The translations under genes and the position numbers were made by a program. From Calditrichota bacterium (GTDB lineage Bacteria; Electryoneota; AABM5-125-24; Hatepunaeales; Hatepunaeaceae), in the NCBI GenBank assembly GCA_016867835.1, contig VGIQ01000001.1, positions 10,094-74,093 on the forward strand: 64,000 nt of DNA, in the 5' to 3' direction. Below are positions 11,534 through 32,476 of the stretch, piece after piece; position 1 is the first letter of the stretch, and each line of letters begins with the position of its first letter. The notes under the pieces are model-generated. The model searched no databases. It saw only the letters and a list, made by a program, of their open reading frames with translations, and was not told the origin of the DNA.

Positions 11534-12979
11534 TTGGAAATCGGGAGCATCGTGGAGTTTCGCGAACCGATCGACCAGTTGGTGAACAGCCCGCAAAGGT
11601 TCACCTCACAACTCAAGTTCCCTGTGCCGGAGCGAATCAAAATCTACGATTCGACCCTGCGCGACGGCGAACAGATGCCGGGCGTCGCCTTTTCGCCGGG
11701 GCAGAAGTATCAGGTCGCCAAGGCGCTCTCGGAGATCGGCTGCGACATCCTCGACCTCGGTTTCCCCTATGCTGCGCTCTCCGATCGCTATGCACTACAG
11801 ATGATCGTCCAAGCCAAGCGGCTCGGCGAAATCCGCAAGGAGGTCGATCTGCTGGTGATGTGCCGTTCGACCCAGCAGGACATCGACGCGACCATTCAAT
11901 CGCTGCGCGACATCGACGTCGATATCAACGAGGTGACTTTCTTCATTTTCACCTCAGGCTCCGACCTGCACCTGAAGTATAAGATTGGCAAGACGCTCCT
12001 GAAGCGGGATGGGATCGATCCGGCGAAGTGGCTCGATCAGCCGGTCTCCTACTATCGCGATGCCAATATCCGGATGCAGTGCGACGCGATCCGGTATGCT
12101 CGCGAAAGAGGCGTCGAGCGGATTGAATTCGGCGGCGAAGACGGCTCCCGCGCCGACCTCGACTATACCATCGAACTTGCAAAGGCCGGCTACGATGCCG
12201 GCGGGACGCGCTACAGTTTTCCCGATACGGTCGGCTGCTTCACTCCGGAAGGCGTCGATTATTACATTCCGCGCATCGTCGCCGAGTTCCCGAATCGCGA
12301 TCTGGTCTGCCACTTTCATAATGACTTCGGTCTCGCGACGATCAACACCTTGCGCGCGATGTCGCATGGCCTCAACGTCCCGACCTGCACCGCCAACGGA
12401 ATGGGCGAACGGGCTGGAAACGCGCCGCTGCATCAGGTTACGGTTGCGTTGAAACTGCTCTACGGCGTTCACCTGCCACGTTTTCGTTACGAGAAGTTGC
12501 GTGAACTGAGGCAACTGGTCGAGGAGTTTTCGGGAATCCCGGTCTCGGCGCACGAGCCGGTCATAGGTGAGGGGGTCTTTACCCACGAGTCGGGCATTCA
12601 CACCGCGGGACTCTTAATCGACGCCTCGATCTATCAGGTGATTCCACCGGAATTAGTCGGTGCGCGCATCCGGTATGTCTTCGGCAAGCACTCCGGGCTG
12701 GCTGCGGTTAAGGCAGTGCTTGAGAAGCCCGAGTACCGGTCTGGCCTTGAGCGGGACGGAGTCGAAGTGAACGACGACCTGATCGAAGCGGTTACGCTCT
12801 TCGTCAAGGATGCCCGCCAGAAGCGGACCCGGAGCGACCAGTTCACCTCGATCACCGAGGCCTACTACCGCGAATACGACCGACTCGGCATATCGGAATT
12901 GCGGCTGGTGGAACTCGCTTCGACTATCGGGCGGCTGCTGAAAGAAGGCCACTTCAACCATGTGGAGAGGAAGAAGTAG
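11534..12979 (+). CDS. 2-isopropylmalate / citramalate / homocitrate synthase-family (DRE-TIM metallolyase) enzyme
   Basis: IYDSTLRDGEQMPGVAFS is the LeuA/CimA/NifV hallmark. HFHNDFGLATINTL is the metal-binding HxH region. 481 aa. The true start may lie upstream of 11534. Confidence 0.7.
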   Translation: MEIGSIVEFREPIDQLVNSPQRFTSQLKFPVPERIKIYDSTLRDGEQMPGVAFSPGQKYQVAKALSEIGCDILDLGFPYAALSDRYALQMIVQAKRLGEIRKEVDLLVMCRSTQQDIDATIQSLRDIDVDINEVTFFIFTSGSDLHLKYKIGKTLLKRDGIDPAKWLDQPVSYYRDANIRMQCDAIRYARERGVERIEFGGEDGSRADLDYTIELAKAGYDAGGTRYSFPDTVGCFTPEGVDYYIPRIVAEFPNRDLVCHFHNDFGLATINTLRAMSHGLNVPTCTANGMGERAGNAPLHQVTVALKLLYGVHLPRFRYEKLRELRQLVEEFSGIPVSAHEPVIGEGVFTHESGIHTAGLLIDASIYQVIPPELVGARIRYVFGKHSGLAAVKAVLEKPEYRSGLERDGVEVNDDLIEAVTLFVKDARQKRTRSDQFTSITEAYYREYDRLGISELRLVELASTIGRLLKEGHFNHVERKK

Positions 12980-12981
12980 TA

Positions 12982-13050
12982 GGACAGGCATTCCTGCCTG
13001 TCCGGAATTTGGCATGGGGATGGGACGGGACAGACAAGAATGTCTGTCCT
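12982..13050. repeat. composite REP-like element: paired hairpins GGACAGGCATTCCTGCCTGTCC and GGGACAGACAAGAATGTCTGTCC nested in an outer palindrome
   Basis: Perfect 9-bp stems with 4-nt loops. The same family recurs at 32420-32476, 32556-32640 and 40383-40455. Confidence 0.7.
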
Positions 13051-13077
13051 ACTGTACAGATTAGATAGGAGTTCACA

Positions 13078-14232
13078 ATGTCGCTTGACTGGCTGCCTCG
13101 CGAAGGGGGATTGAAGGACCATGACCTCTGGGGGGATGAGTTCTTTGGCGGTGAAGCCCCCACCGTCCGTTATGAACTGAAACCGGTTACAGCCCCTGAC
13201 GGCAACGTTGCCGAAGGCTTGTTCACGGCCTGGATCACGCTCGATAACCCGGCGCAGTTCAATTCCTACACCACGCACATGGTGAAGGGCGTCATCGCCG
13301 GGTTTCACAAAGCCTCGATGGATCGGCGGGTGGTGGCGATCGTCTTTACCGCGGTCGGCGAACGCGCCTTCTGCACCGGCGGGAATACCCGGGAGTATGC
13401 CGAATACTACTCCGGCCGGCCGCAGGAATACGGCCTCTATATGGACCTCTTCAACGCGATGGTCGATGCCATTCTGAACGCCAAGAAGCCGGTCATCTGC
13501 CGGGTCAACGGGATGCGCGTGGCGGGCGGTCAGGAGATCGGAATGGCCTGCGACCTCACCATCGCAGCCGATACGGCCGTCTTCGGCCAGGCCGGTCCGC
13601 GACACGGTTCGGCGCCGGATGGCGGATCGACCGACTTCCTCCCCTGGATGCTGCCACTCGAGCAGGCGATGTGGAGCTGCATCAGTTGCGAACTCTGGAG
13701 CGCTTACAAGATGGCGCGCTACGGCCTGGTGTCGAAGGTTGCGCCGGTGCTGGTTCGCGCGTCGGGATCGGAATCCCAACCTGCGCGCGAAAAGTTCATC
13801 CGCAACCCTTTGGTCATCACCGACCGCTATGTCGAAGAGGGCGAGATCGTCTATGGCGAACCGGTCACCGGCGCTGCTGCAGCGTTGGCTAAAGAGCAGT
13901 TTAAGGCAGCGACCTACGACTTCAGCCGGCTCGACGCCGAGGTCAACAGACTGGTCTGGACCTTCACTAACCTTTTCCCGGGCTGCCTCATCAAGTCGAT
14001 CGACGGCATCCGGCAGAAGAAGAAGTTCTGGTGGGATCAGACCAAACTTGCCAACCGGCACTGGCTGGCGACGAATATGATGGGCGAAGCGTTCCTCGGC
14101 TTCCACGCCTTCAATACCAAGAAACAGACCGGGAAGGACACTATCGATTTCATCAAGTTCCGGCAGTTGCAAGCGGAGGGGCATCCGTTCGACGCGGAAC
14201 TGATGGAAGCCGTGTTGGGAAAGAAAATCTAA
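13078..14232 (+). CDS. crotonase-superfamily enzyme of ring-hydrolase length (candidate 6-oxocyclohex-1-ene-1-carbonyl-CoA hydrolase-like; specific function unproven)
   Basis: Crotonase core (AFCTGGN ... KPVICRVNGMRVAGGQEIGMACDLTIAAD). 384 aa is much longer than canonical 260-aa hydratases and matches the long ring-cleaving members. The 460-aa minus-strand ORF 12865..14247 is its shadow. Confidence 0.55.
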   Translation: MSLDWLPREGGLKDHDLWGDEFFGGEAPTVRYELKPVTAPDGNVAEGLFTAWITLDNPAQFNSYTTHMVKGVIAGFHKASMDRRVVAIVFTAVGERAFCTGGNTREYAEYYSGRPQEYGLYMDLFNAMVDAILNAKKPVICRVNGMRVAGGQEIGMACDLTIAADTAVFGQAGPRHGSAPDGGSTDFLPWMLPLEQAMWSCISCELWSAYKMARYGLVSKVAPVLVRASGSESQPAREKFIRNPLVITDRYVEEGEIVYGEPVTGAAAALAKEQFKAATYDFSRLDAEVNRLVWTFTNLFPGCLIKSIDGIRQKKKFWWDQTKLANRHWLATNMMGEAFLGFHAFNTKKQTGKDTIDFIKFRQLQAEGHPFDAELMEAVLGKKI

Positions 14233-14299
14233 CCACAAAGAACACAAAGATCACAAAGATCATAGGGAATACTTGGTGTTCTTTGTGCTCTTCGTGGTG
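14230..14299. repeat. palindromic gene-junction repeat (AACTAACCACAAAGAACACAAAGA ... TGTTCTTTGTGCTCTTCGTGGTG), copy 1
   Basis: Imperfect 25-bp inverted repeat with an 18-bp loop. It begins within the stop codon of the upstream gene. The same family occurs at 16884, 17825, 18661 and 24202. Confidence 0.7.
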
Positions 14300-14310
14300 A
14301 AAAGGAAAAA

Positions 14311-15057
14311 ATGGGCATTCTGAAAGGGAAAACCGCCATTGTCACCGGCGGGTCGTTAGGGATCGGCGCCTCAGTCGCCCTCAAACTCGCCTCCGACGGC
14401 GCCGATGTGGCGCTCAACTACCGCAAGCATGCGGACGAAGCCGAAGCTGTCGCCGAACAGATCCGCACCATGGGCCGCCGGGCGCTGGTGATCCAGGCCG
14501 ACACATCGTCCTTTGCCGATGCCGAAGCGATGGTCGCTCGCGTCAAGGCGGAATGGGGCCGGGTGGACATCCTCGTCTGTAACGCGGGGATCACCAGAGA
14601 CGCGGTGCTCTGGAAGATGACCGAAGAGCAGTGGGACGCGGTGATCGGGACGAACCTGAAGGGCTATTTCAATTACGTCCGCGCGGCTGCGCCGGTGATG
14701 CGCGAGCAGAAGTACGGGCGGATCGTCTGCGTCACCTCGATCAATGGGCTGCGCGGCAAGTTCGGCCAGTCGAACTACGCGGCCTCCAAAGCCGGCATCC
14801 ACGGGCTGGTGAAGAGCGCCGCCAAGGAATTAGGGCGGTCGGGCGTCACCGTCAACGCCGTCGCGCCGGGGATGATCCTGACCGATATGATGGCTGCGCT
14901 GCCGGAGGAGGTCAAGCAGAAGGCGGTGGACGAGACGGCGGTGGGCAGATTGGGGGAGCCGGACGACATCGCGCATGTGGTCAGTTTCTTCTGCAGTGAC
15001 TTCGCAAAGCATGTGACGGGGGAGATTATCAAGGTGGATGGGGGGCAGTATATCTGA
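14311..15057 (+). CDS. short-chain dehydrogenase/reductase (3-oxoacyl-ACP reductase-like; candidate hydroxyacyl-CoA dehydrogenase)
   Basis: TGGSLGIGASVA (TGxxxGIG), NAG, and Y..K catalytic motif (SNYAASKAG). 248 aa. Confidence 0.85.
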   Translation: MGILKGKTAIVTGGSLGIGASVALKLASDGADVALNYRKHADEAEAVAEQIRTMGRRALVIQADTSSFADAEAMVARVKAEWGRVDILVCNAGITRDAVLWKMTEEQWDAVIGTNLKGYFNYVRAAAPVMREQKYGRIVCVTSINGLRGKFGQSNYAASKAGIHGLVKSAAKELGRSGVTVNAVAPGMILTDMMAALPEEVKQKAVDETAVGRLGEPDDIAHVVSFFCSDFAKHVTGEIIKVDGGQYI

Positions 15058-15069
15058 CTTGATCTCCAT

Positions 15070-15250
15070 TCGCCCCCCCTTTGATTCCCCCCCGCAGAGC
15101 GGGGGGGAGAGAAGGCAGAAGCGCGCCTGCGACTATTACTCCCCCGCGCAAAGCGGGGGGGAGTGAAGATGGAACGTTGTAGTGTATTCGCAACCGCCTG
15201 ACAAGGGGGCAAGACGCTCTACTCCCCCGCGCAAAGCGGGGGGGAATTAA
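15070..15250. repeat. three GC-rich hairpin repeats (CCCCCGC-N4/5-GCGGGGG), two of them near-identical 27-mers (TACTCCCCCGCGCAAAGCGGGGGGGAG)
   Basis: Hairpins at about 15083-15103, 15138-15162 and 15220-15244. The same hairpin core occurs 4x in tandem inside the CDS at 19552-19712. Confidence 0.7.
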
Positions 15251-15264
15251 AGGGGGGGCTGGAT

Positions 15265-15702
15265 GTGCATTGGAGTGGAATTAGGGATGGAAAATCCCCA
15301 ATGAGAGCAATCCCAAAGCGCTTGCCTAAAACTAAGCCTCATTCCGTCAATTTCGCCCGCAGCCTACGCCGTAAGATGACTGACGCCGAGCGGCGGCTGT
15401 GGGCAAGGCTGCGGTCAGGGCGAATAAGCGCCAAATTCCGGCGTCAGGAGCCTATCGGATCTTACATCGTGGACTTTGCTTGCATAGAAAGAGGATTGGT
15501 CATAGAACTTGACGGCTCGCTGCATTACACCGATGAAGGCAAGAAGAGGGATGAAGTTCGGGACGCCTACCTGCGGTCGTTGGGATTCATGGTGTTGAGG
15601 TTCTCAGATCGGGATGTGATGAACAATATCGAGGGGGTATGTCAGGCGATCCTTGAGCAAGTTCAATGGAAAAACGAAGAAAAGGAAGAGTCAGGAAAAT
15701 GA
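15265..15702 (+). CDS. DUF559 / Vsr-like endonuclease-domain protein
   Basis: MTDAERRLWARLR ... KFRRQEPIGSYIVDFACIERGLVIELDGSLH is the DUF559 signature. Lower GC than neighbours. The start could be M at 15301. Confidence 0.7.
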   Translation: MHWSGIRDGKSPMRAIPKRLPKTKPHSVNFARSLRRKMTDAERRLWARLRSGRISAKFRRQEPIGSYIVDFACIERGLVIELDGSLHYTDEGKKRDEVRDAYLRSLGFMVLRFSDRDVMNNIEGVCQAILEQVQWKNEEKEESGK

Positions 15703-16886
15703 GTAACATCCTCGCCCTATCCGCTTGCCGGACTCCGATGGGGTCGTTCGGCGGGACGCTGAAGGATATGGCATCCTACGACATCGGAGCCGTGGCTGTG
15801 AAGGCCGCCGTCGAGCGCGCCGGACTGACGCCGGAGCAGATCGACGACGTGATCCTTGGCTCGTGCCGTCAAGCCGGCAATGGGCCTAATCCGGCTCGCA
15901 CGGCATCCGTCCGGGGCGGCATCCCGACCTCGGTGCCGGTCATCACCCTCAATATGGCATGCCCGTCGGGGATGCGAGCCATCCAGTTCGCGGCTAATGA
16001 AATCGCCTCCGGGATGGCTTCCACGGTGCTGGTCGGCGGCTTCGACTCGATGAGCACCATCCCCTATCTCCTTAAGGGAGCGCGCTGGGCTGGGTTCAAG
16101 ATGGGCGACCGCAAACTGGAAGACGGCTGGTCCGACGCCACCGACCCGCTCATCGGGCAGGGCATGGGCGCCACCGCTGAAAACCTCTTCGACAAGTGGC
16201 AGATCCCCCGCCGCGACCAGGATGAGTACGCGGCAGCCTCGCACATCAAGGCGCATACCGCGTGGGAGAACGGCTGGTTCGACGAGGAGGTTGTCCCCAT
16301 CACCTTCCCGCCCGACAAGAAGACCGGTGAGTCGGTGGTCTTCGCCAAAGACGAGACGATCCGCTTCCCTGTGGATGCCGAGAAGATGGGGAAACTGCCG
16401 CCGGTTTTCCGTAAGGACGGGACGGTAACAGCGGGCAATGCCTGCGGGATGTCGGACGGGGCTTGCGGGTTGGTGCTGACGTCATCAGAACGCGCTTCGG
16501 AACTGGGCGCCAAACCGCTCTTTTCGGTGGTCGAGATGGCATTCACCGCCACCGAACCGGCAACTATGGGCGAAGGTCCCGGCATCGCTATCCCTGCGGT
16601 GCTGAAGAAAGCCGGGATGACCCTTTCCGACATCGACCTGATCGAAGTCAACGAAGCCTTCGCCATTCAGGTGCTGGTGAACGAAAAGATGGTCGGCTGG
16701 GACCGGGATAAACTGAACATCCACGGCGGAGCCATCGCGTTAGGGCATCCGACCGGCATCTCGGGCGCGCGGATCGCGGTGACGCTCTATCATGCGCTGA
16801 AGCGGCTGAATAAGGAGATCGGGCTGGCTTCAATCTGCGGCGGAGGAGGTGTGACCGGGGCAATGATCATCAAGAGGGAAAACTAA
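15699..16886 (+). CDS. acetyl-CoA C-acyltransferase (thiolase II)
   Basis: MSNILALSACRTPMGSFGG at the N-terminus. Cys region NMACPSGMRAI. C-terminal GHPTGISGARI and ICGGGGVTGAM. Preferred start is ATG at 15699 (GGAAGAG/AGGAAA upstream) rather than 15666. Confidence 0.85.
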   Translation: MSNILALSACRTPMGSFGGTLKDMASYDIGAVAVKAAVERAGLTPEQIDDVILGSCRQAGNGPNPARTASVRGGIPTSVPVITLNMACPSGMRAIQFAANEIASGMASTVLVGGFDSMSTIPYLLKGARWAGFKMGDRKLEDGWSDATDPLIGQGMGATAENLFDKWQIPRRDQDEYAAASHIKAHTAWENGWFDEEVVPITFPPDKKTGESVVFAKDETIRFPVDAEKMGKLPPVFRKDGTVTAGNACGMSDGACGLVLTSSERASELGAKPLFSVVEMAFTATEPATMGEGPGIAIPAVLKKAGMTLSDIDLIEVNEAFAIQVLVNEKMVGWDRDKLNIHGGAIALGHPTGISGARIAVTLYHALKRLNKEIGLASICGGGGVTGAMIIKREN

Positions 16887-17366
16887 CCACAAAGGCACAA
16901 AGAACACAAAGACTTTCTTGTCATAAATGATAGAGATCATTCCTGAGGATATAGACCTGACCGGCAAGAATTTGTTGATGCGGCCTTTCAGGTTCACAAA
17001 GCGCTTGGGTCGGGGCTTCTTGAATCAGCCTACGAATCCTGCATCGCGCATGAGATTGTGTCGCGAGGGCTCGATGACAAGACGCAGGTGATTCTTCCCG
17101 TCATCTACAAAGGAGTCAGGATCGATGCGGGATTTCGATTGGATTTGGTCGGCGAAGACAAGGTCATGTCGAACTGAAGGCGGTAGAAGAACTCCACCTG
17201 ATTCGTGAAGCACAATTGATCACATATCTTCGACTCTCGGGCATTCGGCTTGGTTTCCTAATGAATTTCAACGCTAAACTTATTAAGAACGGAATTAGGC
17301 GAATTGTAGTATGATAAGTTTCCTCGAAACATATTCTTAGTGTTCTTCGTGCTCTTTGTGGTAACA
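16884..17366. repeat. palindromic gene-junction repeat, copy 2, with halves split by a ~420-bp insertion (GxxExxY pseudogene)
   Basis: Left half ACCACAAAGGCACAAAGAACACAAAGA at 16887-16913. Right half TTAGTGTTCTTCGTGCTCTTTGTGGTAAC at 17338-17366. The two halves are reverse complements. Confidence 0.65.
16927..17330 (+). pseudogene. GxxExxY-family (PD-(D/E)xK nuclease-like) gene disrupted by at least two frameshifts
   Basis: Frame 1 gives AAFQVHKALGSGLLESAYESCIAHEIVSRGL ... RIDAGFRLDLVGEDKV, then a stop. The conserved continuation VELKAVEELHLIREAQLITYLRLSGIRLGFLMNFNAKLIKNGIRRIVV is in another frame. The N-terminal DLTGK... is also out of frame. Confidence 0.6.
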
Positions 17367-17371
17367 TCCCG

Positions 17372-17827
17372 ATGGAAATCTACGAACGCAATATAAACGC
17401 TGCGGTCCGGCGCGACGGAGACGATCATATCGTCACCAAAGCCTCGCTGCTTGACCTGAACCACAACATGCGAGTCGAAATCCGCGTCTGCATCGCCAAC
17501 CGGACGGTCGTCGCAGCCGAGGCGCAAATGGTGAAAGCCCCCTTTGGCATCTGCGACCAGACCGCCGCCTTTGCCCGCAATTTGACCGGACTCAGGATCG
17601 AGCGGGGCGTAACGCGCAAAGTCGCCGAAGTGATGGGTCGGTCGTCGGGCTGCACCCACCTTTACGAACTGGCCATCGAAGCCGTGCGCCTATCATCGAA
17701 TGTGCTGTTAGGCTTCGAAACCGGCGACCGCGAATGGCGTGAACGGCGCTTGACAGACGAGGAGTTCATCGAGCGGGCGAAGGGATTCCTGGCCAACTCT
17801 TGCCTGCCGTTTAGAATTGAAAACTAA
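17372..17827 (+). CDS. hypothetical protein (possible DUF2889-like; SGCTHLYEL motif)
   Basis: 151-aa ORF between two palindromic junction repeats. Family assignment is from memory of a Cys/His motif only. Confidence 0.4.
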   Translation: MEIYERNINAAVRRDGDDHIVTKASLLDLNHNMRVEIRVCIANRTVVAAEAQMVKAPFGICDQTAAFARNLTGLRIERGVTRKVAEVMGRSSGCTHLYELAIEAVRLSSNVLLGFETGDREWRERRLTDEEFIERAKGFLANSCLPFRIEN

Positions 17828-17875
17828 CCACAAAGAGCACAAATAGCACAAAGAAATGTGATTTTGTGATCTTTA
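17825..17875. repeat. palindromic gene-junction repeat, copy 3 (degenerate right half)
   Basis: AACTAACCACAAAGAGCACAAATAGCACAAAGAAATGTGATTTTGTGATCTTT. Confidence 0.5.
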
Positions 17876-17899
17876 AGCGCCTTGTAATGGAAGAAAAGA

Positions 17900-18667
17900 A
17901 TGGATTCCCATTATATCAAGATCGATCCGGACGACCACCGCCTCGACATCATTCTCTCCCATCCACCCGTCAACATTCTGACTGGCGCGGTGATGAAGGA
18001 GATGATCCGAGTTTTGCAGGACGCCTCCTCCGATCCCCACCTGCGAGCCGTCGTCATTCGGTCTGAGGGGAAAGCCTGGTCGGCCGGGGCGGACGTGAGT
18101 GAACACCTGCCCGGGCAGTTTGAACCCATGCTCGACACCTTCGGCGAATTGTGCGAACTGGTGCGCACCTATCCGGTGCCAACCGTTGCTGCGGTGGACG
18201 GGCTCTGCCTTGGCGGCGGCTGTGAACTGGCGCTAATGTGCGATTTTGTACTGGCGTCGGAGCGCGCCAAGTTCGGTCAGCCGGAGATCAAAGTCGGTGT
18301 CTTCCCTCCCGCGGCTTGTGCCCATTTCGCGATGAAGATGGGCTGGCAGAACGCGATGGAGGTGATCCTGACCGGGGATGTCTTCAGTGCAGAAGACGCA
18401 GCAAAAATGAAATTGGCAACGAAGGTGTTTCCGGTGGATCGTTTTTCGGACGAAGTGGACCGATTCGTTGACCGGATCATTTGCAACAGTGGAGTTGTCC
18501 TTCGAGTGGCAAAGAGAGCGGCGCTCGAAGGGATGCGCCTTTCGCCCGAAATGGCGGCACAGGAATCGGATCGCATCTATCGGCAGGAACTGATGACGAT
18601 GGCGGACGCGGTCGAGGGGCTAAACGCCTTTATGGAAAAGCGCGAACCAAACTGGAAAGACAACTAA
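17900..18667 (+). CDS. enoyl-CoA hydratase/isomerase (crotonase family; candidate dienoyl-CoA hydratase)
   Basis: RAVVIRSEGKAWSAGADV and GLCLGGGCELALMCDFVLASE are crotonase oxyanion-hole motifs. 255 aa. Confidence 0.8.
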   Translation: MDSHYIKIDPDDHRLDIILSHPPVNILTGAVMKEMIRVLQDASSDPHLRAVVIRSEGKAWSAGADVSEHLPGQFEPMLDTFGELCELVRTYPVPTVAAVDGLCLGGGCELALMCDFVLASERAKFGQPEIKVGVFPPAACAHFAMKMGWQNAMEVILTGDVFSAEDAAKMKLATKVFPVDRFSDEVDRFVDRIICNSGVVLRVAKRAALEGMRLSPEMAAQESDRIYRQELMTMADAVEGLNAFMEKREPNWKDN

Positions 18668-18725
18668 CCACTAGGCACGCAAAGAGCGCCAAGAATTCTT
18701 TGTGGTCTTTGTGTTCTTGGTGGTA
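18661..18725. repeat. palindromic gene-junction repeat, copy 4
   Basis: AACTAACCACTAGGCACGCAAAGAGCGCCAAGAA ... TTCTTTGTGGTCTTTGTGTTCTTGGTGGT. Confidence 0.6.
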
Positions 18726-18738
18726 AAAAGAGGCCGAA

Positions 18739-20025
18739 GTGTTTTCTCAATTCAAATCCTGGTATGAAGAACGGCACGCTTACGCTAAAGGGTGGAAGGC
18801 GCGCACCGGCGGCAAAGTGATGGGCTGCTTTTGCAGTTATGCCCCCGAGGAAATCCTCGTCGCGGCGAACTGGCTCCCGGCGCGCGTGTTAGGCGGTCAC
18901 CAGCCCCAGGACGTCGCCGAAAAATATATGTTCGGGATGTATTGTCCCTTTTCCCGCGACGTCCTGGCGCAAGGGCTTAAAGGGCGCTACGACTATCTCG
19001 ACGGCATCCTGCTGACGCAAAGTTGCATTCACCTGCGGCAGTCGTTCAACTCATGGCAGATGCACGTTCCGGTGCCGTTCAATTACTACATCTATATGCC
19101 GCAGAAGGTTCAGACGCCTCATGCAGTGCCCTATCACCGGAGCGAACTGGCGAAGTTTCGCGCGGCTCTGGAGGCCTACGACGGGACAACGCTAAGTGAA
19201 GACGACCTGAACCGCGGCATCGCCGTCGTCAACGAGAACCGCCGCTTGATGCGCGAAGTCTATGAGTTTCGCAAAGGCGACAGCCCCAAGGTGACCGGCA
19301 CCGAAGCGATGTGGATGACCACCTCGAGCATGTGGGTTGATAAGGAGGAACATTCCGCCGAACTGCGGCGGGTGCTGAAGGAACTGCCCAACCGAAGCCT
19401 TACCCGCCAGACCGGGGCGAAATTGATGATCATCGGCTCGGAGAACGACGACATCCCGTTCATCGAGATGGTCGAAAAGGTCGGCGCGACGGTGGTGATG
19501 GACGAACACTGCACCGGGACGCGGTATTTTTGGAATCAATGTGAGGTTCCCCCCCTTCAATCCCCCCCGCTCAGCGGGGGGGAAGTGCGCGAGGATAAAT
19601 CCCCCCCGCTTAGCGGGAGGGAAGTGCGCGAGGATAAATCCCCTCCGCTTAGCGGGAGGGAAGTGCGCGAGGATAAATCCCCCCCGCTTAGCGGGGGGGA
19701 CGAGAAGGGGGGGCGCGACCTGATGACCGCGATCGCCCAGCGCTACATCGACCGCCCGACCTGCCCGGTGAAAGACTGGGAGGATCGCACCCGCTTCGAG
19801 CATATCCTGCGTCTGGCGCGGGAGTGGGAGGTGCAAGGCGCCATCATCATCCAGCAGAAGTTCTGCGACCCGCACGAGTGCGACATGGTGCCGCTAAGAG
19901 CCTTCCTGAACGAGCACGACATCCCGAACCTGATGCTCGAGTTCGACGCTACCACGCCGCTGGGGCCGTTTAGGATCAGGGTAGAAGCGTTCTTGGAGAT
20001 GATCGGGCAGGAGGAGTTGTTTTGA
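18739..20025 (+). CDS. 2-hydroxyacyl-CoA dehydratase / benzoyl-CoA reductase subunit family protein (HgdB/BcrB-like), carrying an in-frame 4x13-aa repeat insertion
   Basis: GTG start. Family-typical Cys-containing N-terminal region (GCFCSYAPEEIL ... LTQSCIHLRQS) and C-terminal FCDPHECD. 428 aa. Confidence 0.65.
   Translation: MFSQFKSWYEERHAYAKGWKARTGGKVMGCFCSYAPEEILVAANWLPARVLGGHQPQDVAEKYMFGMYCPFSRDVLAQGLKGRYDYLDGILLTQSCIHLRQSFNSWQMHVPVPFNYYIYMPQKVQTPHAVPYHRSELAKFRAALEAYDGTTLSEDDLNRGIAVVNENRRLMREVYEFRKGDSPKVTGTEAMWMTTSSMWVDKEEHSAELRRVLKELPNRSLTRQTGAKLMIIGSENDDIPFIEMVEKVGATVVMDEHCTGTRYFWNQCEVPPLQSPPLSGGEVREDKSPPLSGREVREDKSPPLSGREVREDKSPPLSGGDEKGGRDLMTAIAQRYIDRPTCPVKDWEDRTRFEHILRLAREWEVQGAIIIQQKFCDPHECDMVPLRAFLNEHDIPNLMLEFDATTPLGPFRIRVEAFLEMIGQEELF
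19552..19712 (+). repeat. 4 tandem copies of a 39-bp unit (AAGTGCGCGAGGATAAATCCCCCCCGCTTAGCGGGAGGG) inside the CDS, each containing a CCCCCGC-TTAG-GCGGG hairpin
   Basis: Translates in frame as SPPLSGGEVREDK / SPPLSGREVREDK x4. Copies differ at 1-2 positions. The hairpin core is identical to the intergenic repeats at 15070-15250. Confidence 0.8.
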
Positions 20026-20026
20026 A

Positions 20027-20068
20027 TGTAGAATGCAGAATGTAGAATGTAGAATGAGGAACGAGGGT
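20027..20068. repeat. short tandem repeat (GAATGTAGAAT)n
   Basis: gaatgtagaatgcagaatgtagaatgtagaatgaggaacgagg lies directly after the stop of the preceding gene. Confidence 0.6.
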
Positions 20069-20137
20069 TATTGCTTTGGAGGGGTATAGGTGTTATCTTT
20101 CAGAAAATCAGAATTTCTGAACGGTAGAGGGATTACA

Positions 20138-20407
20138 ATGAAAGTTCAACTACGTTCGAGACGCCAGATCACGCTTCCGGAAGAGGCGGTCAGCGAGTTG
20201 GGAATCAATGAGGGGGATGAGTTCATCGTGAAAGTCGAGGGCGATTCGCTGCGCCTGCTGCCGGTCGTTACCATTCCTCGGGATGAAGCCTATCTCTTCA
20301 CACCGGAATGGCAGAGGGCGCTTCAAACCGCCGAGAAGGAACTGCGCGAGGGCGAATACGAGACCTTCGCGAGCGTCGATGACCTGCTGAAGGACCTGAA
20401 CGACTGA
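20138..20407 (+). CDS. AbrB/MazE/SpoVT-family antitoxin
   Basis: MKVQLRSRRQITLPEEAVSELGINEGDEFIVKVEGDSLRLLPV is a swapped-hairpin AbrB-type motif. The ORF could start at 20090. Its stop overlaps the next start (ATGA). Confidence 0.6.
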   Translation: MKVQLRSRRQITLPEEAVSELGINEGDEFIVKVEGDSLRLLPVVTIPRDEAYLFTPEWQRALQTAEKELREGEYETFASVDDLLKDLND

Positions 20408-20673
20408 TGCAGATCATCCGGCTGAGTCAATTCAAGCGGATGTGGAAGAAACTGCCTGCGGACGTTCAGGCGAGGGCAGCGAAAGCGATCCGCCTGCTTG
20501 CCGCCGACCGGTCGCATCCGTCGCTTGGCTTGAAGCGGCTGCAACGGCTGCCTCAATACTTGGAGGTGCGCATCGACCGCGACCACCGGTTGATATGCCA
20601 GATGGGGAGCGAGGTTATCGTGCTGGTGGCGGTAGGGAGGCATGAGGTGTTGGGGAGGGTGAGGCAAAAGTGA
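20407..20673 (+). CDS. RelE/ParE-superfamily toxin (type II TA)
   Basis: 88-aa basic protein translationally coupled to the antitoxin. The pattern LPADVQARAAKAIRLLAAD ... YLEVRIDRDHRLI ... VLVAVGRHE resembles the RelE/ParE fold. Confidence 0.5.
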   Translation: MQIIRLSQFKRMWKKLPADVQARAAKAIRLLAADRSHPSLGLKRLQRLPQYLEVRIDRDHRLICQMGSEVIVLVAVGRHEVLGRVRQK

Positions 20674-20737
20674 AGCTAAACATCATCATTCCTTCGGAAG
20701 ATGGAATTCAGATCTACATTTCTTTGTAAAAACAGGA

Positions 20738-21742
20738 ATGAAGGCACTTTATTCAAATTGCATTTTCTGCGGCTGCGACTTAGACGAGACCAATAGATCT
20801 CGCGAGCATATCGTTCCACAGATCATAATGGGATCATTCATCAGTCAAGATGTCTGCAGATGCTGTAACAGCAAATTGAGCGAGGCGGATAAGCTTATAC
20901 TGAATGATCCACGGATTATTCAAGCTATAAACTGTCTTGAACTTTCTGATATTCAAAATAACATCCTGAGAATAGGTGAAACCATAGGAACAGATACACA
21001 GGATGGCGCCGAAAGAAGGTTTCATATGAAGGATGGGCACCCTATACTTATTCCCAAGCCATCTTTTACGGGTGAAAGAGTCGCGGATATAGATAACACC
21101 TTGCCTCTACTGCGCACATTGTTATCCAGAGACAAGGAGCTGAATTGGCCAAACGAAAAGGCAGGCCGATACATCGGTGAAATCGTAACGCCAGAATTTC
21201 TCAAACTCAAGCCGCATGAGAGTATCGATCTTCGAGAAGCGGGATACTCAATCGAAATGAGGCAGATTGGAAACATAGAGACACATTTTCCTGCCATTTC
21301 GTTTCAAGATCATAGATTGATCGCTAAAATAATATACGAGATCAGTTTCTATCTGCTTTCGCCCGAGATCGCTGAGTCAGCGATGAAAGATCTTGACTAT
21401 TATAGAGATGTAGCTTACGGAAGTATTGAAAGAGAAGAAGGCAGATTGTTTACAAGATCGGTGGAGCTTCTTAACGAACCCAACTATCTTCATAGGATTC
21501 AGATCTCATTCTCTGCCTCAAGCTTTCTTACGGTTGACATCGACCTCTTTGCAAGTGTAAACTATCACGCTATCATCAGAACTGATAGAACCTATCCGCT
21601 GCCAATTCTAAATTCCCGGCAGGTTACCGCTGTCGGGTTGGGGATGACCTTTAACGATACATCGAATAGACACTTTGCGATAAGGTACTTCAATGATGCA
21701 GATTGGGCGGTCGAAAGATTCGATGACGGAGAAGAACAGTGA
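20738..21742 (+). CDS. HNH-endonuclease-domain protein with ~270-aa uncharacterised C-terminal region
   Basis: CIFCGCDLDETNRSREHIVPQ ... CRCCNSKLSE is the HNH motif (CxxC, catalytic His in EHIVP, second CxxC). 334 aa. The region is markedly AT-richer than the window. Confidence 0.65.
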   Translation: MKALYSNCIFCGCDLDETNRSREHIVPQIIMGSFISQDVCRCCNSKLSEADKLILNDPRIIQAINCLELSDIQNNILRIGETIGTDTQDGAERRFHMKDGHPILIPKPSFTGERVADIDNTLPLLRTLLSRDKELNWPNEKAGRYIGEIVTPEFLKLKPHESIDLREAGYSIEMRQIGNIETHFPAISFQDHRLIAKIIYEISFYLLSPEIAESAMKDLDYYRDVAYGSIEREEGRLFTRSVELLNEPNYLHRIQISFSASSFLTVDIDLFASVNYHAIIRTDRTYPLPILNSRQVTAVGLGMTFNDTSNRHFAIRYFNDADWAVERFDDGEEQ

Positions 21743-22890
21743 CAATATCAACCCAAATGATCAATACTTGGACAGCTTCTTGGAAGCAACTGAGATACCT
21801 CGAGCGAGTGGGAGCATTACTTGCCATAGCAACTCTGACCGCCTCCTTATTTTATTGGGCGGGGAATGGATTCGCCGAGATACAAAATACACTTGGCTAC
21901 TATCCATCTGGAGTTGAAGAAGCGCTAGAGCAAAACCGCGAACTGGACCTAAAATATCCAACACGCCCGGGTCTAAGCAAGGATCTGGGAGAGGTTGCGG
22001 GAGTCTTGCTTTTCTTCATCGGAATTTGTCTAATCTTGTCATTGATTGATGCAGCCGTGAAATTGCCAATCTTGGCGGGATTGTTGGTCGCCCCAATATC
22101 TTTCCTATCGGGCAAGGGAACCACACATGAATACCTCATTCTATCCTTGCTCAACAATAACGCTATTGGTGGCAGAGGCGTGCTTTCACTTATCATGATA
22201 ACGCTTTCCGGAGTATTTGCGATGAGGGCTTTTCGGAAATCTTGGAGATTAAATTTCTCATTGCTAACTGCACTTGGAGTATTCGCGTCTTGGATAGGTA
22301 ATTTCATGGGTCAAGAATACAGCTATCGCGCCGGTATTTTGACGGCAGCTGCTGGAATTCTCCTTATCATAGCGCCAAAATCACTTAGGGATTCTTGTCT
22401 GACTTCCATCGAAGTGACTGGCGAAATATCTAAAGGTAGGCTTGACAGCTTGATTCAAAAAGCCACATTGTCTACCAGAATATTTGGCATTGCCTATTCT
22501 ATTCTTGGGCTTATTCTTGTTCTGGGAGTTGCAGGAACTATGGGAGATGAGTTTCTACAAGGAATCAAGAGAGGGGCACCTGTTAGTGATTCAAGCGGAA
22601 TCTTAGTGCTGGCCGTCATTCAGATATTGATAGGGATAGCTTTGCTTATGCTCTCTTTGATATCATCTAATCCAGCAATGCGGCGTCGATATCAGTTTTC
22701 CATCATCATAGGGATCATCTGGATCTTATTGCCTTATGAGGCACTTGACTTGTTAGCCCGATTGACCGATCCCGGCTTAAATGCTTTTGTAAAACTGTTG
22801 ACGTCTATTGGAATGATTATTGTACTCAAGACCGCAATTAGAGCTCGGGACGCCATTTATATGAATGTCAGCAATTCCAAGGAAACATAA
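21739..22890 (+). CDS. polytopic membrane protein (about 8-10 predicted TM helices), unknown function
   Basis: GTG start overlapping the upstream stop (GTGA). Repeated hydrophobic helices (VGALLAIATLTASLFYW, VLLFFIGICLILSLI, LPILAGLLVAPISFL, ILLIIAP, IFGIAYSILGLILVLGVAG, ILVLAVIQILIGIALLMLSLI, IIIGIIWILLPY, IGMIIVL). Low GC. Confidence 0.6.
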   Translation: MTISTQMINTWTASWKQLRYLERVGALLAIATLTASLFYWAGNGFAEIQNTLGYYPSGVEEALEQNRELDLKYPTRPGLSKDLGEVAGVLLFFIGICLILSLIDAAVKLPILAGLLVAPISFLSGKGTTHEYLILSLLNNNAIGGRGVLSLIMITLSGVFAMRAFRKSWRLNFSLLTALGVFASWIGNFMGQEYSYRAGILTAAAGILLIIAPKSLRDSCLTSIEVTGEISKGRLDSLIQKATLSTRIFGIAYSILGLILVLGVAGTMGDEFLQGIKRGAPVSDSSGILVLAVIQILIGIALLMLSLISSNPAMRRRYQFSIIIGIIWILLPYEALDLLARLTDPGLNAFVKLLTSIGMIIVLKTAIRARDAIYMNVSNSKET

Positions 22891-22911
22891 TCCGCATCAT
22901 TCGGAATACTA

Positions 22912-24204
22912 ATGTCCACCTACCCCACCGAACCCCTGAAGTGCTGGGCTAAAGCCAAGGAACTTCGGGATAACTACTATCGCGACTACGCCACCGCCCA
23001 CGAGTGCGGCGGGTTGCGCTGGACCGGCGGCGCTTGGTCGTTCGACGCCATCCCCGCCGGGCTAGGGCGCGACGTCTGGCCCATCACCGGCGAGCCTTAC
23101 GGCGCGTCGATGGCCTTCAACAAGCCATTCAGCCAGCGCGCCCTCGAAGCCGCCGAAGCCAAGGGCTGGGCGCGCGATCTCTGCAGTTATATGCGCAACT
23201 ACTGGGGGTCGATGTATCTCGACGAGTTCAACTTCGGCGGGAAGTATCCGAAGCCCGACTTCGCCTTTCAGGATCATATCTGCTGCTCCCACGCCAAGTG
23301 GTATCAGCATGTCGCGGAATACAAGCAGATCCCCTACTTTTGTATCGACGTTTCGGTCGGTCCCTATCACCTGATCGACGACCACAAACTGAACTTCGTC
23401 GTCGGGCAGATGCACGAGTCGATTGACTTCCTCGAGCGCATCACCGGCCGCCGCTACGACGACGAACTGCTGATCGAAGCGGTGCAGAACGAGACGCGAG
23501 CCACCTCCGCCTGGGCCGAGGTCTGTGCCCTCAACAAGGCGATCCCGGCACCGCTCGACGAAAAGACGATGTATTCGCTCTACGTCCTCGGGACGCTCAA
23601 CAAGTCGAAGAAGGAGTTCGCCGACTTCTACGAGGAATTGCGGGACGAGGTTGCCGACCGCGTGGCGCGCGGCATCGCTGCCGTTCCGAGCGAGCGTTGC
23701 CGGCTGATGTCCGATACCCAGCCGCCGTGGGGCTTCTTGAAGATATTCCGCTACCTCGAAGGCTTCGGCGCGGTCTCGGTCGGGAGCCTTTACACCTTCG
23801 CCCTAATCGGCATCTGGGAAGAGAAGCCGGACGGCAGTTGGGGCGCGCGGACAACTCCGATGGCCCTCGGCTTGCCGATGGATACCCGCGATCAGGCGCT
23901 CCGGATACTGGCGGACTGGAACCTCTCCAAACCCGAATGGCAGCATTTCTATGACGCAAGTTTGAAGTCGAAGATGATGCTGCGGATCGTCAAGGAATGG
24001 AAACTCGACGGCGTCATGCTGCACCTGAATCGCGGCTGCGAAGGCCTCTCCTGCGGCATAATGGAAAACCGCCTCGCCATCGCCGAAGCCGGCGTGCCGG
24101 TGATGACCTTCGAAGGCAATATGGGCGACGAGCGGGAGTTCGACGAAGCGAAGACCAAAGACCGCATGGATGCGTTCATGGAGACGCTGGGACTTAGGAA
24201 TTAA
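22912..24204 (+). CDS. 2-hydroxyacyl-CoA dehydratase / benzoyl-CoA reductase subunit family protein (HgdA/BcrC-like)
   Basis: [23 protein letters not shown] and [10 protein letters not shown] are Cys-motif regions typical of the HGD-D family. 430 aa. Confidence 0.65.
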
Positions 24205-24270
24205 CCACAAAGAACACAAAGATCACAAAGATATCCTGGTGCTCTTGGTGTGCTTTGTGGTGAGAATAAT
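24202..24270. repeat. palindromic gene-junction repeat, copy 5
   Basis: AATTAACCACAAAGAACACAAAGATCACAAAGA tatcc TGGTGCTCTTGGTGTGCTTTGTGGTGAG. Confidence 0.65.
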
Positions 24271-25084: not shown

Positions 25085-25085
25085 G

Positions 25086-25135
25086 AAGTAAGCGGGTAGG
25101 CGAGTAAGCGGGTAAGCGGGTAAGTGAACAGGCGG
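25086..25135. repeat. short tandem repeat (GTAAGCGG / GTAAGCGAG)n
   Basis: gtaagcgggtaggcgagtaagcgggtaagcgggtaagtgaac. An inverted copy of the motif lies at 25530-25550 (cttactcgcttactc). Confidence 0.6.
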
Positions 25136-25144
25136 GAGTAGAAA

Positions 25145-25521
25145 ATGGGGACGGTCTTCAGGAAGGTGGAGGATATAGAGGTCTGGAAGCGGGCATGCAG
25201 GCTTGCGGTCGATCTCTATTCCCTCTGCGATCAGGAGCCGCTCGCCAAGGATTGGGGGCTTCGAGATCAGTTGCGGCGTGCGGCAGTTTCCATTGCATCG
25301 AACATCGCGGAGGGATATGAGCGAAACTCGCAAGCGGAATTCAGGAGATATCTCTTGATCGCCAAAGGTTCCTGCGTGAATTGAAGACGCAACACTACAT
25401 CCTGCAGGCATCCGGTAAGATTAGCGAGGCAGATTTGACAACCCTGATCGAACGCTGCATAGAACTATCTCAGATGATCGGCAGCCTCGCCTCCGCCATT
25501 CGCAAACAACATCTTGCATAA
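25145..25521 (+). pseudogene. four-helix-bundle (23S rRNA intervening-sequence-type) protein gene with a -1 frameshift
   Basis: The ORF ends ...[16 protein letters not shown]. The conserved continuation [43 protein letters not shown] is in the next frame (shift at about 25375-25381). Confidence 0.5.
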
Positions 25522-25568
25522 TAACTAACGCTTACTCGCTTACTCATTCAAATCAACAACAGTCCGCA

Positions 25569-26459
25569 TTGGAGGAGTCAGCAATGTCAGTCGAATACTG
25601 GCGGTGGAAGGAATACAACTGGCGCAACGAAGCGGTCGATCCGCGCGGCGGAGGCATCCTCTCCGGAGGCGTCGATGTCGGATCGGTCTCATCGCAGGCG
25701 GTGGTGCTCTACGAAGGCAATCTCTACGCCTACAGCAATATGCGCACCGGCTCCGACTCGCCTGACAGCGCCCGCAAGGCGTTCGAGTGGGCGCTCGAAG
25801 GCACGGGACTGCAGGTTGGCGATATCCCCTTCATTGTCGGCACCGGTTACGGGCGGGTCAATGTGCCGTTTGCTCATAAAGCCATCACCGAGATTGCCTG
25901 TCATGCCCGCGGTGCCAATTATATGTATGGCCCGGCTGTCCGGACGCTGCTCGATATGGGCGGGCAGGACTGCAAGGCGATCCGCTGCGACGAACGGGGC
26001 AAGGTGACGAACTTCCTGATGAACGACAAGTGCGCTGCCGGGACCGGACGCGGGATGGAAGTCTTTGCCGATTTACTCGCAATCCCCATTGAGCAGGTCG
26101 GCGAAATGTCGTTCCAGGTCGAGAGCGAGCCGACGCCGGTCTCTTCGACCTGTGTCGTCTTCGCCAAGACCGAAGCCGCCGGGCTGCTCCGGTCCGGCTG
26201 GCCGAAGAACCTTGTCCTCGCGGCCTACTGCTCGGCGATGGCGCATCGCGTCGTTTCGCTGATCGAGCGGCTCGGTATGGAAGGCGGGTTCGCGATCACC
26301 GGCGGCATTGCCAAGAACAGCGGCGTCGTCCGGCGCCTCGAAAAGGAACTCGGCGTTACCTCGATGACCAGTTCCTACGACACTCAGATCGCGGGTGCGC
26401 TCGGCGCGGCACTATTTGCGAAGGCGCTGCTTGAGAAGGGCTTGGGGCTCAAGGCTTAG
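25569..26459 (+). CDS. BadF/BadG/BcrA/BcrD-type ATPase, copy 2 (distinct paralogue)
   Basis: GVDVGSVSSQAVVL and NDKCAAGTGRGME. 296 aa. The likely start is ATG at 25584 (MSVEYW). Confidence 0.75.
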   Translation: MEESAMSVEYWRWKEYNWRNEAVDPRGGGILSGGVDVGSVSSQAVVLYEGNLYAYSNMRTGSDSPDSARKAFEWALEGTGLQVGDIPFIVGTGYGRVNVPFAHKAITEIACHARGANYMYGPAVRTLLDMGGQDCKAIRCDERGKVTNFLMNDKCAAGTGRGMEVFADLLAIPIEQVGEMSFQVESEPTPVSSTCVVFAKTEAAGLLRSGWPKNLVLAAYCSAMAHRVVSLIERLGMEGGFAITGGIAKNSGVVRRLEKELGVTSMTSSYDTQIAGALGAALFAKALLEKGLGLKA

Positions 26460-26484
26460 GGCTCAAGATCACTCAAGGGGTGAG

Positions 26485-26870
26485 ATGATGTCAAGGGACT
26501 ACCGGAAACTTCGGGTATTTCGATCGGCGCAAAGTCTTGCCCTTATGGTCTATGAATCGACCAGACTATTTCCAAATGAAGAGTTGTTCGGAGCAACGAA
26601 CCAATTGCGCCGGGCAGCGCTATCAGTTCCAACTAACTCCGTTGAGGGCTCTCATCGCACCAGTCGCGGAGATTGCTTGAGATTCCTCGACGTTGCGATG
26701 GGGTCGCTTGCAGAAACTGGATACCTGATCGACTTCGCTGCCAGTCTCGGCCATTTGCCGCAAGACAAACGGGACAATCTGCTTGCCCAATAGACTGAAT
26801 GCGCCCAACTCCTCGGCGCGCTTATCAATTCACACCGCAGGGCGAATGATTCCAAAATTCTTAAGCCCTG
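26485..26870 (+). pseudogene. second four-helix-bundle (IVS-type) protein gene, interrupted by an in-frame TAG at 26791-26793
   Basis: MMSRDYRKLRVFRSAQSLALMVYE ... NSVEGSHRTSRGDCLRFLDVAMGSLAETGYLIDFA is the family core. The reading frame continues after the TAG (TECAQLLGALIN...) as the expected C-terminal helix. Confidence 0.45.
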
Positions 26871-26905
26871 AACCTTAAGCCTTAAGCCCTAAGCCATGAG
26901 CCTAA
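26860..26905. repeat. short tandem repeat (CTTAAGCC)n
   Basis: cttaagccctgaaccttaagccttaagccctaagccatgagcc. Confidence 0.6.
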
Positions 26906-27189: not shown

Positions 27190-27252
27190 GGCAAGTATTA
27201 AGTATCAAGTGCCAAGTATCAAGTATCAAGTGCCAAGTATCAAGTATCAAGT
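27190..27252. repeat. short tandem repeat (CAAGTATCAAGTG)n
   Basis: gtatcaagtgccaagtatcaagtatcaagtgccaagtatcaagtatcaagtgtcaagtg. The same motif occurs at 29735-29770 and 61823-61852. Confidence 0.7.
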
Positions 27253-27257
27253 GTCAA

Positions 27258-30354: not shown

Positions 30355-30483
30355 GGAATGTATCGCGAAATCGGCTTCGAGGTGATGATCGTCCCTTTCG
30401 ACCCGGTAGAGTGCGAAGGCTGCTGCAAGGAGTGCTTCAGCGAAGGCGAGTCGGGGGCGATGGTAGTCTATACGAAGAAGTGA
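30355..30483 (+). CDS. small Cys-rich ORF (42 aa; CEGCCKEC) of unknown function
   Basis: MYREIGFEVMIVPFDPVECEGCCKECFSEGESGAMVVYTKK. A longer ORF from 30223 overlaps the GNAT gene in another frame. Weak call. Confidence 0.2.
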   Translation, partial: GMYREIGFEVMIVPFDPVECEGCCKECFSEGESGAMVVYTKK

Positions 30484-32419: not shown

Positions 32420-32476
32420 CAGTAGGGCAGGCATTCCTGCCTGCCCTTTGGACGGACAAGAATGTCCGTCCTACTG
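32420..32476. repeat. composite REP-like element (GGGCAGGCATTCCTGCCTGCCC + GGACGGACAAGAATGTCCGTCC)
   Basis: Same hairpin family as 12982-13050. Confidence 0.7.

Follow-up and report, generated by a model that had tools for sequence, protein, structure and literature searches.

The stretch of DNA analysed here (the window) comprises 64,000 nt of a Calditrichota metagenome-assembled genome (MAG; contig VGIQ01000001.1), and coordinates are window positions unless another record is named. It carries a benzoyl-CoA-type operon that encodes two HGD-D reductase subunits, two BcrAD ATPases and a dienoyl-CoA hydratase, together with an SDR protein, a thiolase and additional hydratases. Five genes of this operon end within copies of a palindromic repeat, which an initial annotation, made from the letters of the sequence, had interpreted as operon punctuation. 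The core of the repeat, CACAAAGANCACAAAG, has 14 matches with up to two mismatches in the window, against 0.03 expected, and all of them lie within 14.2-24.3 kb. The repeats are real, and the annotated positions 14230, 16884, 17825 and 24202 stand, while the fourth copy along the operon is located at 18665 rather than at 18661.

At all five sites the TAA stop of the + strand upstream gene immediately precedes CCAC, and the final codon and stop do lie within the repeat, so that coding and repeat sequence overlap as had been proposed. The view that all five proteins end in asparagine requires correction: the final codons at copies 1 to 5 are ATC, AAC, AAC, AAC and AAT, and therefore four proteins end in N and the product of open reading frame (ORF) 13078..14232 ends in I. 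As annotated, the hairpins end shortly before the next gene, with 9-25 nt between the right arm and the start codon (7 nt at copy 2). The description of every copy as a hairpin with a 25-bp stem holds for copies 1, 4 and 5, which are compact; copy 2 is split, its arms of ~30 nt lying ~420 bp apart in an element of ~480 nt, and copy 3 has lost the integrity of its right arm. The left arms of copies 1 and 5 are identical across 31 nt. Only copy 2 holds a gene between its arms, a GxxExxY pseudogene, and copies 1, 3, 4 and 5 are gene-less. The second HGD-D gene, which is ended by copy 5, encodes a benzoyl-CoA reductase-like subunit. Positions are collected in Table 1.

Table 1. The five repeat copies, the genes that they end, and the matches of their arms to a profile derived from the brackets of GxxExxY genes
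Feature	Form	Extent	Left arm	Right arm	Last codon and stop (position of stop)	Gene ended (ORF)	Next gene start	Profile E-value (left; right)
Copy 1	compact gene-less hairpin	14227..14301	14230-14260	14271-14301	ATC + TAA (14230-14232)	enoyl-CoA hydratase (13078..14232)	14311	0.019; 0.001
Copy 2	split, gene-bearing		16881..16913	17334..17365, ending 7 nt before next start	AAC + TAA (16884-16886)	thiolase (15666..16886)	17372 (DUF2889)	0.2; 0.0088
Copy 2 interior	GxxExxY (PD-(D/E)XK) nuclease pseudogene, + strand, two frameshifts	16927..17314
Copy 3	half-decayed, gene-less	17822..17888	intact	~17859-17888, decayed	AAC + TAA (17825-17827)	DUF2889 (17372..17827)		7 (weak match)
Copy 4	compact gene-less hairpin	18662..18727			AAC + TAA (18665-18667)	cyclohexa-1,5-dienecarbonyl-CoA hydratase, Dch (17900..18667)	18739	0.0083; 0.92
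Copy 5	compact gene-less hairpin	24199..24264			AAT + TAA (24202-24204)	second HGD-D subunit (22912..24204)		0.0064; 0.022

The arms are inverted arrays, each of three to four tandem nonamers in which the unit CRCNRAG is followed by one or two free bases; in the window the unit takes the form CACAAAG plus two bases. Since the arms are tandem nonamers, the stems are broken every 9 nt. Across the family the bracketing arms measure 25-35 bp, and the outward terminus has the generic form TNACC on both sides. The family is defined, on the basis of 55 of the 76 blind-sampled genes described below, by arms with at least two to three CRCNRAG units at a spacing of 8-9 nt and by complementary arrays on both sides, an arrangement that the window copies display.

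When read in three frames to correct its frameshifts, the pseudogene of copy 2 matches TIGR04256 (E = 1.7e-36) and PF13366 (PDDEXK_3; E = 1.5e-35), and its state is identical in two independent assemblies of the same organism (L001 and L002). The complete element consists of a GxxExxY gene of ~125 codons between two inverted arms. Among 43 homologues the catalytic D, E and K of the nuclease motif vary little or not at all, and a confident AlphaFold2 model of the GxxExxY protein (pLDDT 96) has the PD-(D/E)XK fold. A fold search revealed only weak generic neighbours, of which Cas4 SSO0001 (E = 5e-3) was the first, followed by lambda exonuclease, Hjc and a splicing endonuclease; sequence searches returned no solved structure for GxxExxY, and the PADLOC defence models matched neither GxxExxY nor the PF05635 protein (IVP). 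The G+C content of the GxxExxY ORF is ~8 points lower than that of its flanks. A survey of the superfamily lists PF13366 as a family of unknown function that occurs in prokaryotes and viruses and has undergone multiple horizontal transfers (PMC3424549). The literature on GxxExxY, PF13366 and TIGR04256 is sparse, and no paper was found that ties these genes to flanking repeats.

The simple, A-rich character of the units and the origin of the sequence in a MAG could suggest a chance or low-complexity feature, or an artefact of assembly. This explanation has virtually no probability in view of the excess of core matches given above, the presence of the same sequence in two independent assemblies and the occurrence of the family in >100 unrelated records.

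The decisive test of the relationship between gene and arms was to sample GxxExxY genes first and to look for brackets afterwards. The GxxExxY family is very common, a scan of metagenome proteins having provided at least 589 confirmed relatives, and the blind set of 80 genes was picked from metagenomes by protein patterns alone; 76 of these had enough flanking sequence. An inverted repeat scoring at least 12 brackets 65 of the 76 genes, as compared with 0/76 shuffled and 0/51 displaced controls, and in 55/76 at least two CRCNRAG units upstream are combined with at least two complementary units downstream. A profile hidden Markov model trained only on the brackets of the blind-sampled genes, and run with nhmmer on the 64-kb window, finds both arms of copies 1, 2, 4 and 5 and otherwise nothing below E = 5. 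Arms and gene form one unit in many phyla. Distant viral homologues of GxxExxY (IMG/VR contigs L215-L219) are bracketed by inverted arrays of 50-56 nt that share this architecture, with AT-rich units of ~11-12 nt, e.g. TTACTTAAAAT, that are unrelated to CRCNRAG. Two variants of the layout were encountered: a reversed (R..F) arm order at 6/76 sampled genes and, in L110 (4600-5420), three tandem CACAAAG hairpins that immediately precede an intact GxxExxY gene, behind which no arm follows.

Paired arms are 84% complementary, against 35-49% out of register and 64% when an arm is compared with that of a different element. At each of the two variable R positions the arms agree in 59/60 elements; for the N and spacer positions the figure is only 33-38. 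Units of one element are 94% pure in type, and unit type is not accounted for by the G+C content of the host. Protein identity reaches 60.5% within a unit type versus 56.5% between types, a difference that 0/1000 permutations attain; arms and GxxExxY gene diverge together. Taken together with the lack of transcript-strand bias, of a T tail and of an Rfam match described below, the agreement at the R positions, the purity of type and the covariation with the protein suggest that unit identity is kept on both arms. Such a pattern of constraint is more readily reconciled with recognition sites or concerted copying than with a transcript-optimised stem.

Outside the window, exact matches to CACAAAGANCACAAAGA were collected with one genome per species, yielding at least 120 loci. 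By our own arithmetic ~1,100 single-arm matches are expected by chance (15 fixed bases, 596 Gb, both strands), and because many single-arm matches may be fortuitous only paired arms were counted. Among the matches listed, ~48 elements present a forward array followed by a complementary array, in hosts that include Planctomycetota, Acidobacteriota, Chloroflexota, Bacteroidota, Verrucomicrobiota, Latescibacterota, Leptospiraceae and Gammaproteobacteria, and their outer ends usually read TTCACC...GGTGAA or TTAACC...GGTTAA. Carriers with complete genomes include Calothrix, Pedobacter and Desulfacinum hydrothermale. Five of these ~48 listed elements, at four loci in unrelated genomes, adjoin or enclose a GxxExxY gene or remnant and the rest are gene-less; gene-less hairpins far outnumber gene-bearing ones. 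Loops were also inspected as possible remnants of gene deletion: GxxExxY remnants occur in the loops of a few longer elements only (L063, L023), and there are none in the compact copies of the window.

Elements sit immediately behind gene ends. In the blind sample the stop of a long ORF lies within 30 nt of the first unit at 42/91 element ends, compared with 6.5% of random positions (p = 8e-26). The initial annotation had named a motif mostly within coding regions, or random relative to gene ends, as the outcome that would contradict it; with 42/91 ends behind gene stops, the observed placement does not contradict it. Conserved rRNA motifs adjoining an element were not found in ~200 loci. Residence in rRNA was considered and rejected, the motif screen having given two chance matches, of which the hairpin-adjacent one (L065) is without rRNA by Rfam.

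Six related operons, reached via homologues of the hydratase (L123, L125, L126, L208, L209 and L211), reveal what occupies the orthologous junctions. The CRCNRAG family is present at the ECH-SDR junction in L123, at the Dch-HGD-D junction in L123 and L208, at the HGD-D-BcrAD junction in L211 and at the thiolase-DUF2889 junction in L123, L125 and L208, where it is a compact gene-less hairpin at the site of the gene-bearing form of the window. The DUF2889-Dch junction, which holds the decayed copy 3 in the window, measures 4 nt in L123 and contains an element with a PF05635 gene in L125 and L208. Other junctions of the relatives carry hairpins of the same architecture that are built from different units, namely CGCAGATTA, CAAGTCA, AGTGATCA and GAGTAAGCG. 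Orthologous junctions of the operon thus gain and lose elements. Arms of one genome resemble each other more (identity 0.77 and 0.75) than those of different genomes do (0.69), and orthologous sites, likewise at 0.69, are not closer to each other than non-orthologous ones.

The junction between the two reductase subunit genes (20090-22890) holds cargo of another kind: there are genes for a MazE/AbrB-like protein and for a 334-aa HNH_5 endonuclease, plus a 383-aa ORF that matches no family. The cargo of the relatives is entirely different and includes a repetitive extragenic palindrome (REP)-associated tyrosine transposase (RAYT) accompanied by REPs in L123, HicA, a lipase and other genes in L125, and an acetyltransferase among others in L211.

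In the Calditrichota operon loci the stop codon is embedded in 11 of ~17 elements, as compared with 2/59 in the blind sample elsewhere, and wherever it is embedded, TAA comes directly before CCRC or ACAC. In this lineage the element terminus next to the upstream gene reads (A)AYTAACC, which places the last codon and TAA of the host gene inside the element, and the opposite end reads TCACC or TTACC. Comparison with orthologues indicates that the stop has not moved from where it lay ancestrally and that the final residue alone differs: relatives and window end, respectively, in ...KDE and ...KDN for Dch, ...VDK and ...IEN for DUF2889, and ...LKS and ...LRN for HGD-D. In L123, Dch retains a native TAG that is followed by TAACTAACCACC (TAACTAACCAC), so that AACTAA belongs to the element. 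In the window the left outer triplet is TAA and the right one either TGA or TAA, and right ends are mostly TGA in both the window and L123. A TAA...TAA duplication of the stop codon as target site was rejected on account of this predominance of TGA and of the palindromic nature of the ends.

The folding of the transcribed copies, proposed with the initial annotation as a check, bears it out in part. Copies 1 (-26.5 kcal/mol, z = -5.2), 4 (-32.4 kcal/mol, z = -7.2) and 5 (-25.0 kcal/mol, z = -4.5) are stable, copy 2 is so only with its arms joined (-34.1 kcal/mol, z = -9.2), and copy 3 folds no better than shuffled sequences (-11.9 kcal/mol, z = -1.1), 24/200 of which are as stable. No intrinsic terminator is present at any copy, there being no T tail after the stem; the sequences that follow the stems are GAAAAGG, AACATCC, AAAAAGAGG and GAGAATAA. 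Rfam 15 gave no match at gathering thresholds in the window and none at E <= 1 at the hairpins over 12.9-27.3 kb. Sense-strand folding bias was not seen in 15 Calditrichota hairpins, in which the mRNA strand folds no better than its complement, and G.U mismatches (80) are not in excess of A.C mismatches (67). Stem mismatches concentrate at the free positions of the unit. Selection at the RNA level on the transcribed strand was considered, and neither the mismatch types nor the sense and antisense energies reveal any; there is no sign of tuning as RNA.

These data bear directly on host-selected operon punctuation, the proposal that the stem-loops were fixed because they govern how the mRNA of the benzoyl-CoA pathway genes is processed, stabilised or translated, with the sequence family as mere raw material. 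Every copy occupies a spacer of a single + strand operon, with 0 nt separating it from the preceding coding sequence and 9-25 nt from the next start, copies 1, 4 and 5 are very stable and, as the best support for a host function, some hairpin is found at the same junctions in nearly all relatives, even if the sequence family differs. Moreover, stems of similar length (28 bp) in intervening sequences (IVSs) of 23S rRNA are cut by RNase III (PMC4990558), and PMC12306157, citing Liang et al., describes an effect of REPs located <=15 nt from a stop on translation of the upstream gene, with E. coli REP hairpins stalling ribosomes and lowering its expression. A device specific to this operon is, however, at odds with the presence of the same arms around a nuclease gene in unrelated contexts and in many phyla, with one junction that is empty (4 nt) in the relative L123 where the window has a decayed copy, with other junctions that hold different elements, and with the 420 bp that split copy 2. 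Sense folds are no better than antisense folds, the two mismatch types are balanced, mismatches gather at free unit positions instead of being purged, and both a T tail and an Rfam match are lacking. We therefore regard punctuation selected by the host as unlikely. The copies may influence the transcript, most likely as a by-product, in which case incidental RNase III sites, barriers to 3'-exonucleases or ribosome stalling at the stop could arise.

All five repeats belong to the family of GxxExxY brackets: copies 1, 4 and 5 lack a gene, that of copy 2 has decayed, and copy 3 is itself half-decayed. It seems likely to us that the members of this family are selfish, probably mobile elements. The selfish GxxExxY-bracket element is apparently undescribed and is best likened to a miniature inverted-repeat transposable element (MITE) or to an IVS. 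In the mechanism that we propose, the units would be recognition sites for the element's own nuclease, and copies would spread or become uniform as the nuclease triggers copying from one hairpin to another, through homing or gene conversion, or else through some form of transposition; gene-less copies would be maintained in trans. Each transcribed copy is expected to form an imperfect stem of ~25-29 bp that would place the stop codon close to the ribosome binding site of the next gene, and insertion between coupled genes may be tolerable for that reason.

Several points weigh against this selfish-element interpretation. No transposition or homing event was caught in the loci compared, and we know of no PD-(D/E)XK protein of this size that mobilises DNA alone. 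The window contains a single copy of the gene, which is dead, and an intact one was not encountered in this genome, the best homologue being 64% identical. The within-genome excess of arm similarity is modest and based on few copies. No target-site duplication is apparent, the outer TNA triplets of the wider family being palindromic (TTCACC...GGTGAA) and not direct. The TAA of the element matches the ancestral stop exactly in at least five independent cases, a coincidence to which conversion tracts spanning AAYTAA, or microhomology with the A-rich ends of genes, may have led. Finally, the recurrence of some tandem-unit hairpin at the same junctions in nearly every relative could mean that the host needs one.

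Two known systems that place hairpins behind genes were weighed as the source of the copies. REP or REPIN sequences mobilised by a RAYT, an IS200/IS605-like Y1 transposase, are likewise short intergenic palindromes with many copies behind genes, and a true pair exists in L123 (10337-10974), where GTCACGTGAC palindromes flank a Y1_Tnp gene in the classical arrangement. This origin is very unlikely for the window copies: the REP of L123 differs in sequence and is without nonamer arrays, CRCNRAG arms go with GxxExxY and not with Y1_Tnp, and tblastn of the L123 RAYT against the window gave no match. A REP doublet also lies between the HMGL and ECH genes of L123 (4164-4236). Integron-type attC sites marking gene cassettes would equally appear as imperfect hairpins right after each ORF, sometimes holding the stop and in a single orientation, and the left end of copy 1, ATCTAAC, resembles RYYYAAC, the inverse core of attC. 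The genes, however, are not cassettes, since at least six relatives share them as a syntenic, conserved operon for one pathway; GGTGA or GGTAA stands at the right ends in place of GTTRRRY, the arms consist of nonamer arrays such as enclose a nuclease gene in other places, and no integrase was identified among the annotated operon genes, the rest of the window not having been screened for intI. The probability of attC sites is accordingly minute.

The closest known system is the ORF-bearing 23S rRNA IVS. In Coxiella burnetii and Leptospira these sequences of 430-760 nt carry an ORF of ~120 codons (S23p / PF05635) and a terminal stem of ~28 bp, and they are regarded as selfish and horizontally spread, being tolerated because the stem restores the topology of the host RNA (PMC4990558). 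Copy 2 matches the IVS dimensions and likewise has a stem bracketing a small ORF, and a bracket of this kind also surrounds the PF05635 genes of the window and of the related operons. This contrasts with the location of the window elements between protein-coding genes, rather than in helix 9, 25 or 45, with their PD-(D/E)XK nuclease cargo, and with arms that are nonamer arrays and gene-less derivatives that are abundant. REP, BIME and REPIN sequences share with the family the short imperfect palindromes, the many copies just behind stops and, presumably, upkeep in trans by a single-copy gene; they differ in that the partner gene here is GxxExxY instead of a Y1 transposase and lies inside the palindrome rather than beside REP doublets, and that the arms consist of 25-35 nt of 9-nt units.

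MITEs are exemplified by the Correia elements of Neisseria, ERIC/IRU and the cyanobacterial Nezha, and some of them donate stop codons or signals to their neighbours. They resemble the elements described here in their terminal inverted repeats, small size and many gene-less copies beside rarer gene-bearing ones. In contrast to MITEs, the present family is without target-site duplication, its gene-bearing form encodes a PD-(D/E)XK nuclease and no known transposase, and it spans many phyla with recognisably the same ends. The short tandemly repeated repetitive (STRR) heptamers of heterocystous cyanobacteria, which Mazel and colleagues are said to have described in 1990, are reportedly direct arrays with no bracketed gene. 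Both families are intergenic arrays of 7-9 nt units that often lie directly after genes, and Calothrix genomes are among the CACAAAGANCACAAAGA matches listed, but the arrays here are paired in inverted orientation, either enclosing a nuclease gene or descending from such an arrangement, and extend far beyond cyanobacteria. Rickettsia palindromic elements are repeats that become part of host reading frames. The CACAAAG family differs from them in giving only a last codon and stop, with no internal peptide, whereas a C7/G7 repeat of the same operon is comparable, sitting in frame as 54 codons in a reductase subunit.

GxxExxY genes and free-standing PF05635 genes appear to be cargo of hairpin-bracketed selfish elements, which provides a genomic role for two anonymous families, GxxExxY and, by extension, the free-standing "23S rRNA IVS protein" genes. 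A broader proposal, which we advance tentatively and with more doubt than confidence, is that GxxExxY genes and their inverted nonamer arrays constitute a new cross-phylum mobile class, with PF05635 (Avd-like) and DUF559 sister classes. In this mobile class a minimal PD-(D/E)XK nuclease would recognise tandem 7-bp sites in the arms and drive copying into hairpins behind stops. If so, classical rRNA IVSs would be the rRNA-resident members of a larger population found mainly in operon spacers, and gene-less derivatives would contribute a large share of the intergenic hairpins, final codons and stops of some phyla. Should the units be protein-binding sites, the family would offer a natural set of nuclease/7-bp-site pairs with co-diverged specificities. 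The donation, in some lineages, of the last codon and stop of core metabolic genes by a repeat matters for gene calling, C-terminal comparison and MAG assembly, and the elements represent a testable system for asking how a long stem at the stop influences termination, the RNase III processing of polycistronic mRNAs and the coupling of a gene to its downstream neighbour.

Several other repeat families were observed in and around the operon. All PF05635 genes of the window and related operons (7/7) are bracketed by inverted tandem arrays of 7-9 nt units. In the window, a PF05635/TIGR02436 gene for a four-helix-bundle, Avd-like protein (ORF 26395..26793) lies within inverted GGCTCAAG-type arrays (26437-26890), the left arm of which contains the TAG stop (26457-26459) of the upstream BcrAD ATPase gene. 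A degraded PF05635-like ORF (tblastn 25160-25372) lies within GAGTAAGCG arrays (25085-25556) that begin directly after the TAG of the first BcrAD gene; the same unit family forms a gene-less hairpin at 30479-30579, and GAGTAAGCG-type arms surround an intact PF05635 gene in L123 (12419-12864).

The C7/G7 family, with CCCCCCCGCTNAGCGGGGGGGA units and a period of 39 nt, occupies 19549-19713 in frame within the first HGD-D gene (ORF 18739..20025). Its PPLSGGEVREDKS repeats make up the added codons, which are absent from the 374-aa orthologues of L123, L125, L208 and L211. C7/G7 repeats at 15072-15259 also adjoin a DUF559 (Vsr-like PD-(D/E)XK) gene (ORF 15265..15702) between the SDR and thiolase genes, and at the same junction of L125 (5411-6545) a DUF559 gene has C7/G7 repeats on both sides (inverted-repeat score 27.5). 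A third hairpin family (GGACAGGCATTCCTGCCTGTCC / GGGCGGACATTCCTATCCGCCC) is found at 12978-13053, 32450-32587 and 40382-40456; the GGACAGGCATTCCTGCCTGTCC hairpin at the first of these positions overlaps the TAG stop of the HMGL-like gene, and similar hairpins occur in L125, L126 and L211. Direct heptamer arrays are represented by ATGTAGA-type units at 20026-20056, which start at the base after the HGD-D TGA and are also present in L209, and by ~9 CAAGTAT-type units at 27194-27257 before an oxidoreductase gene. Many direct heptamer arrays carry stops that rotate through all three frames.

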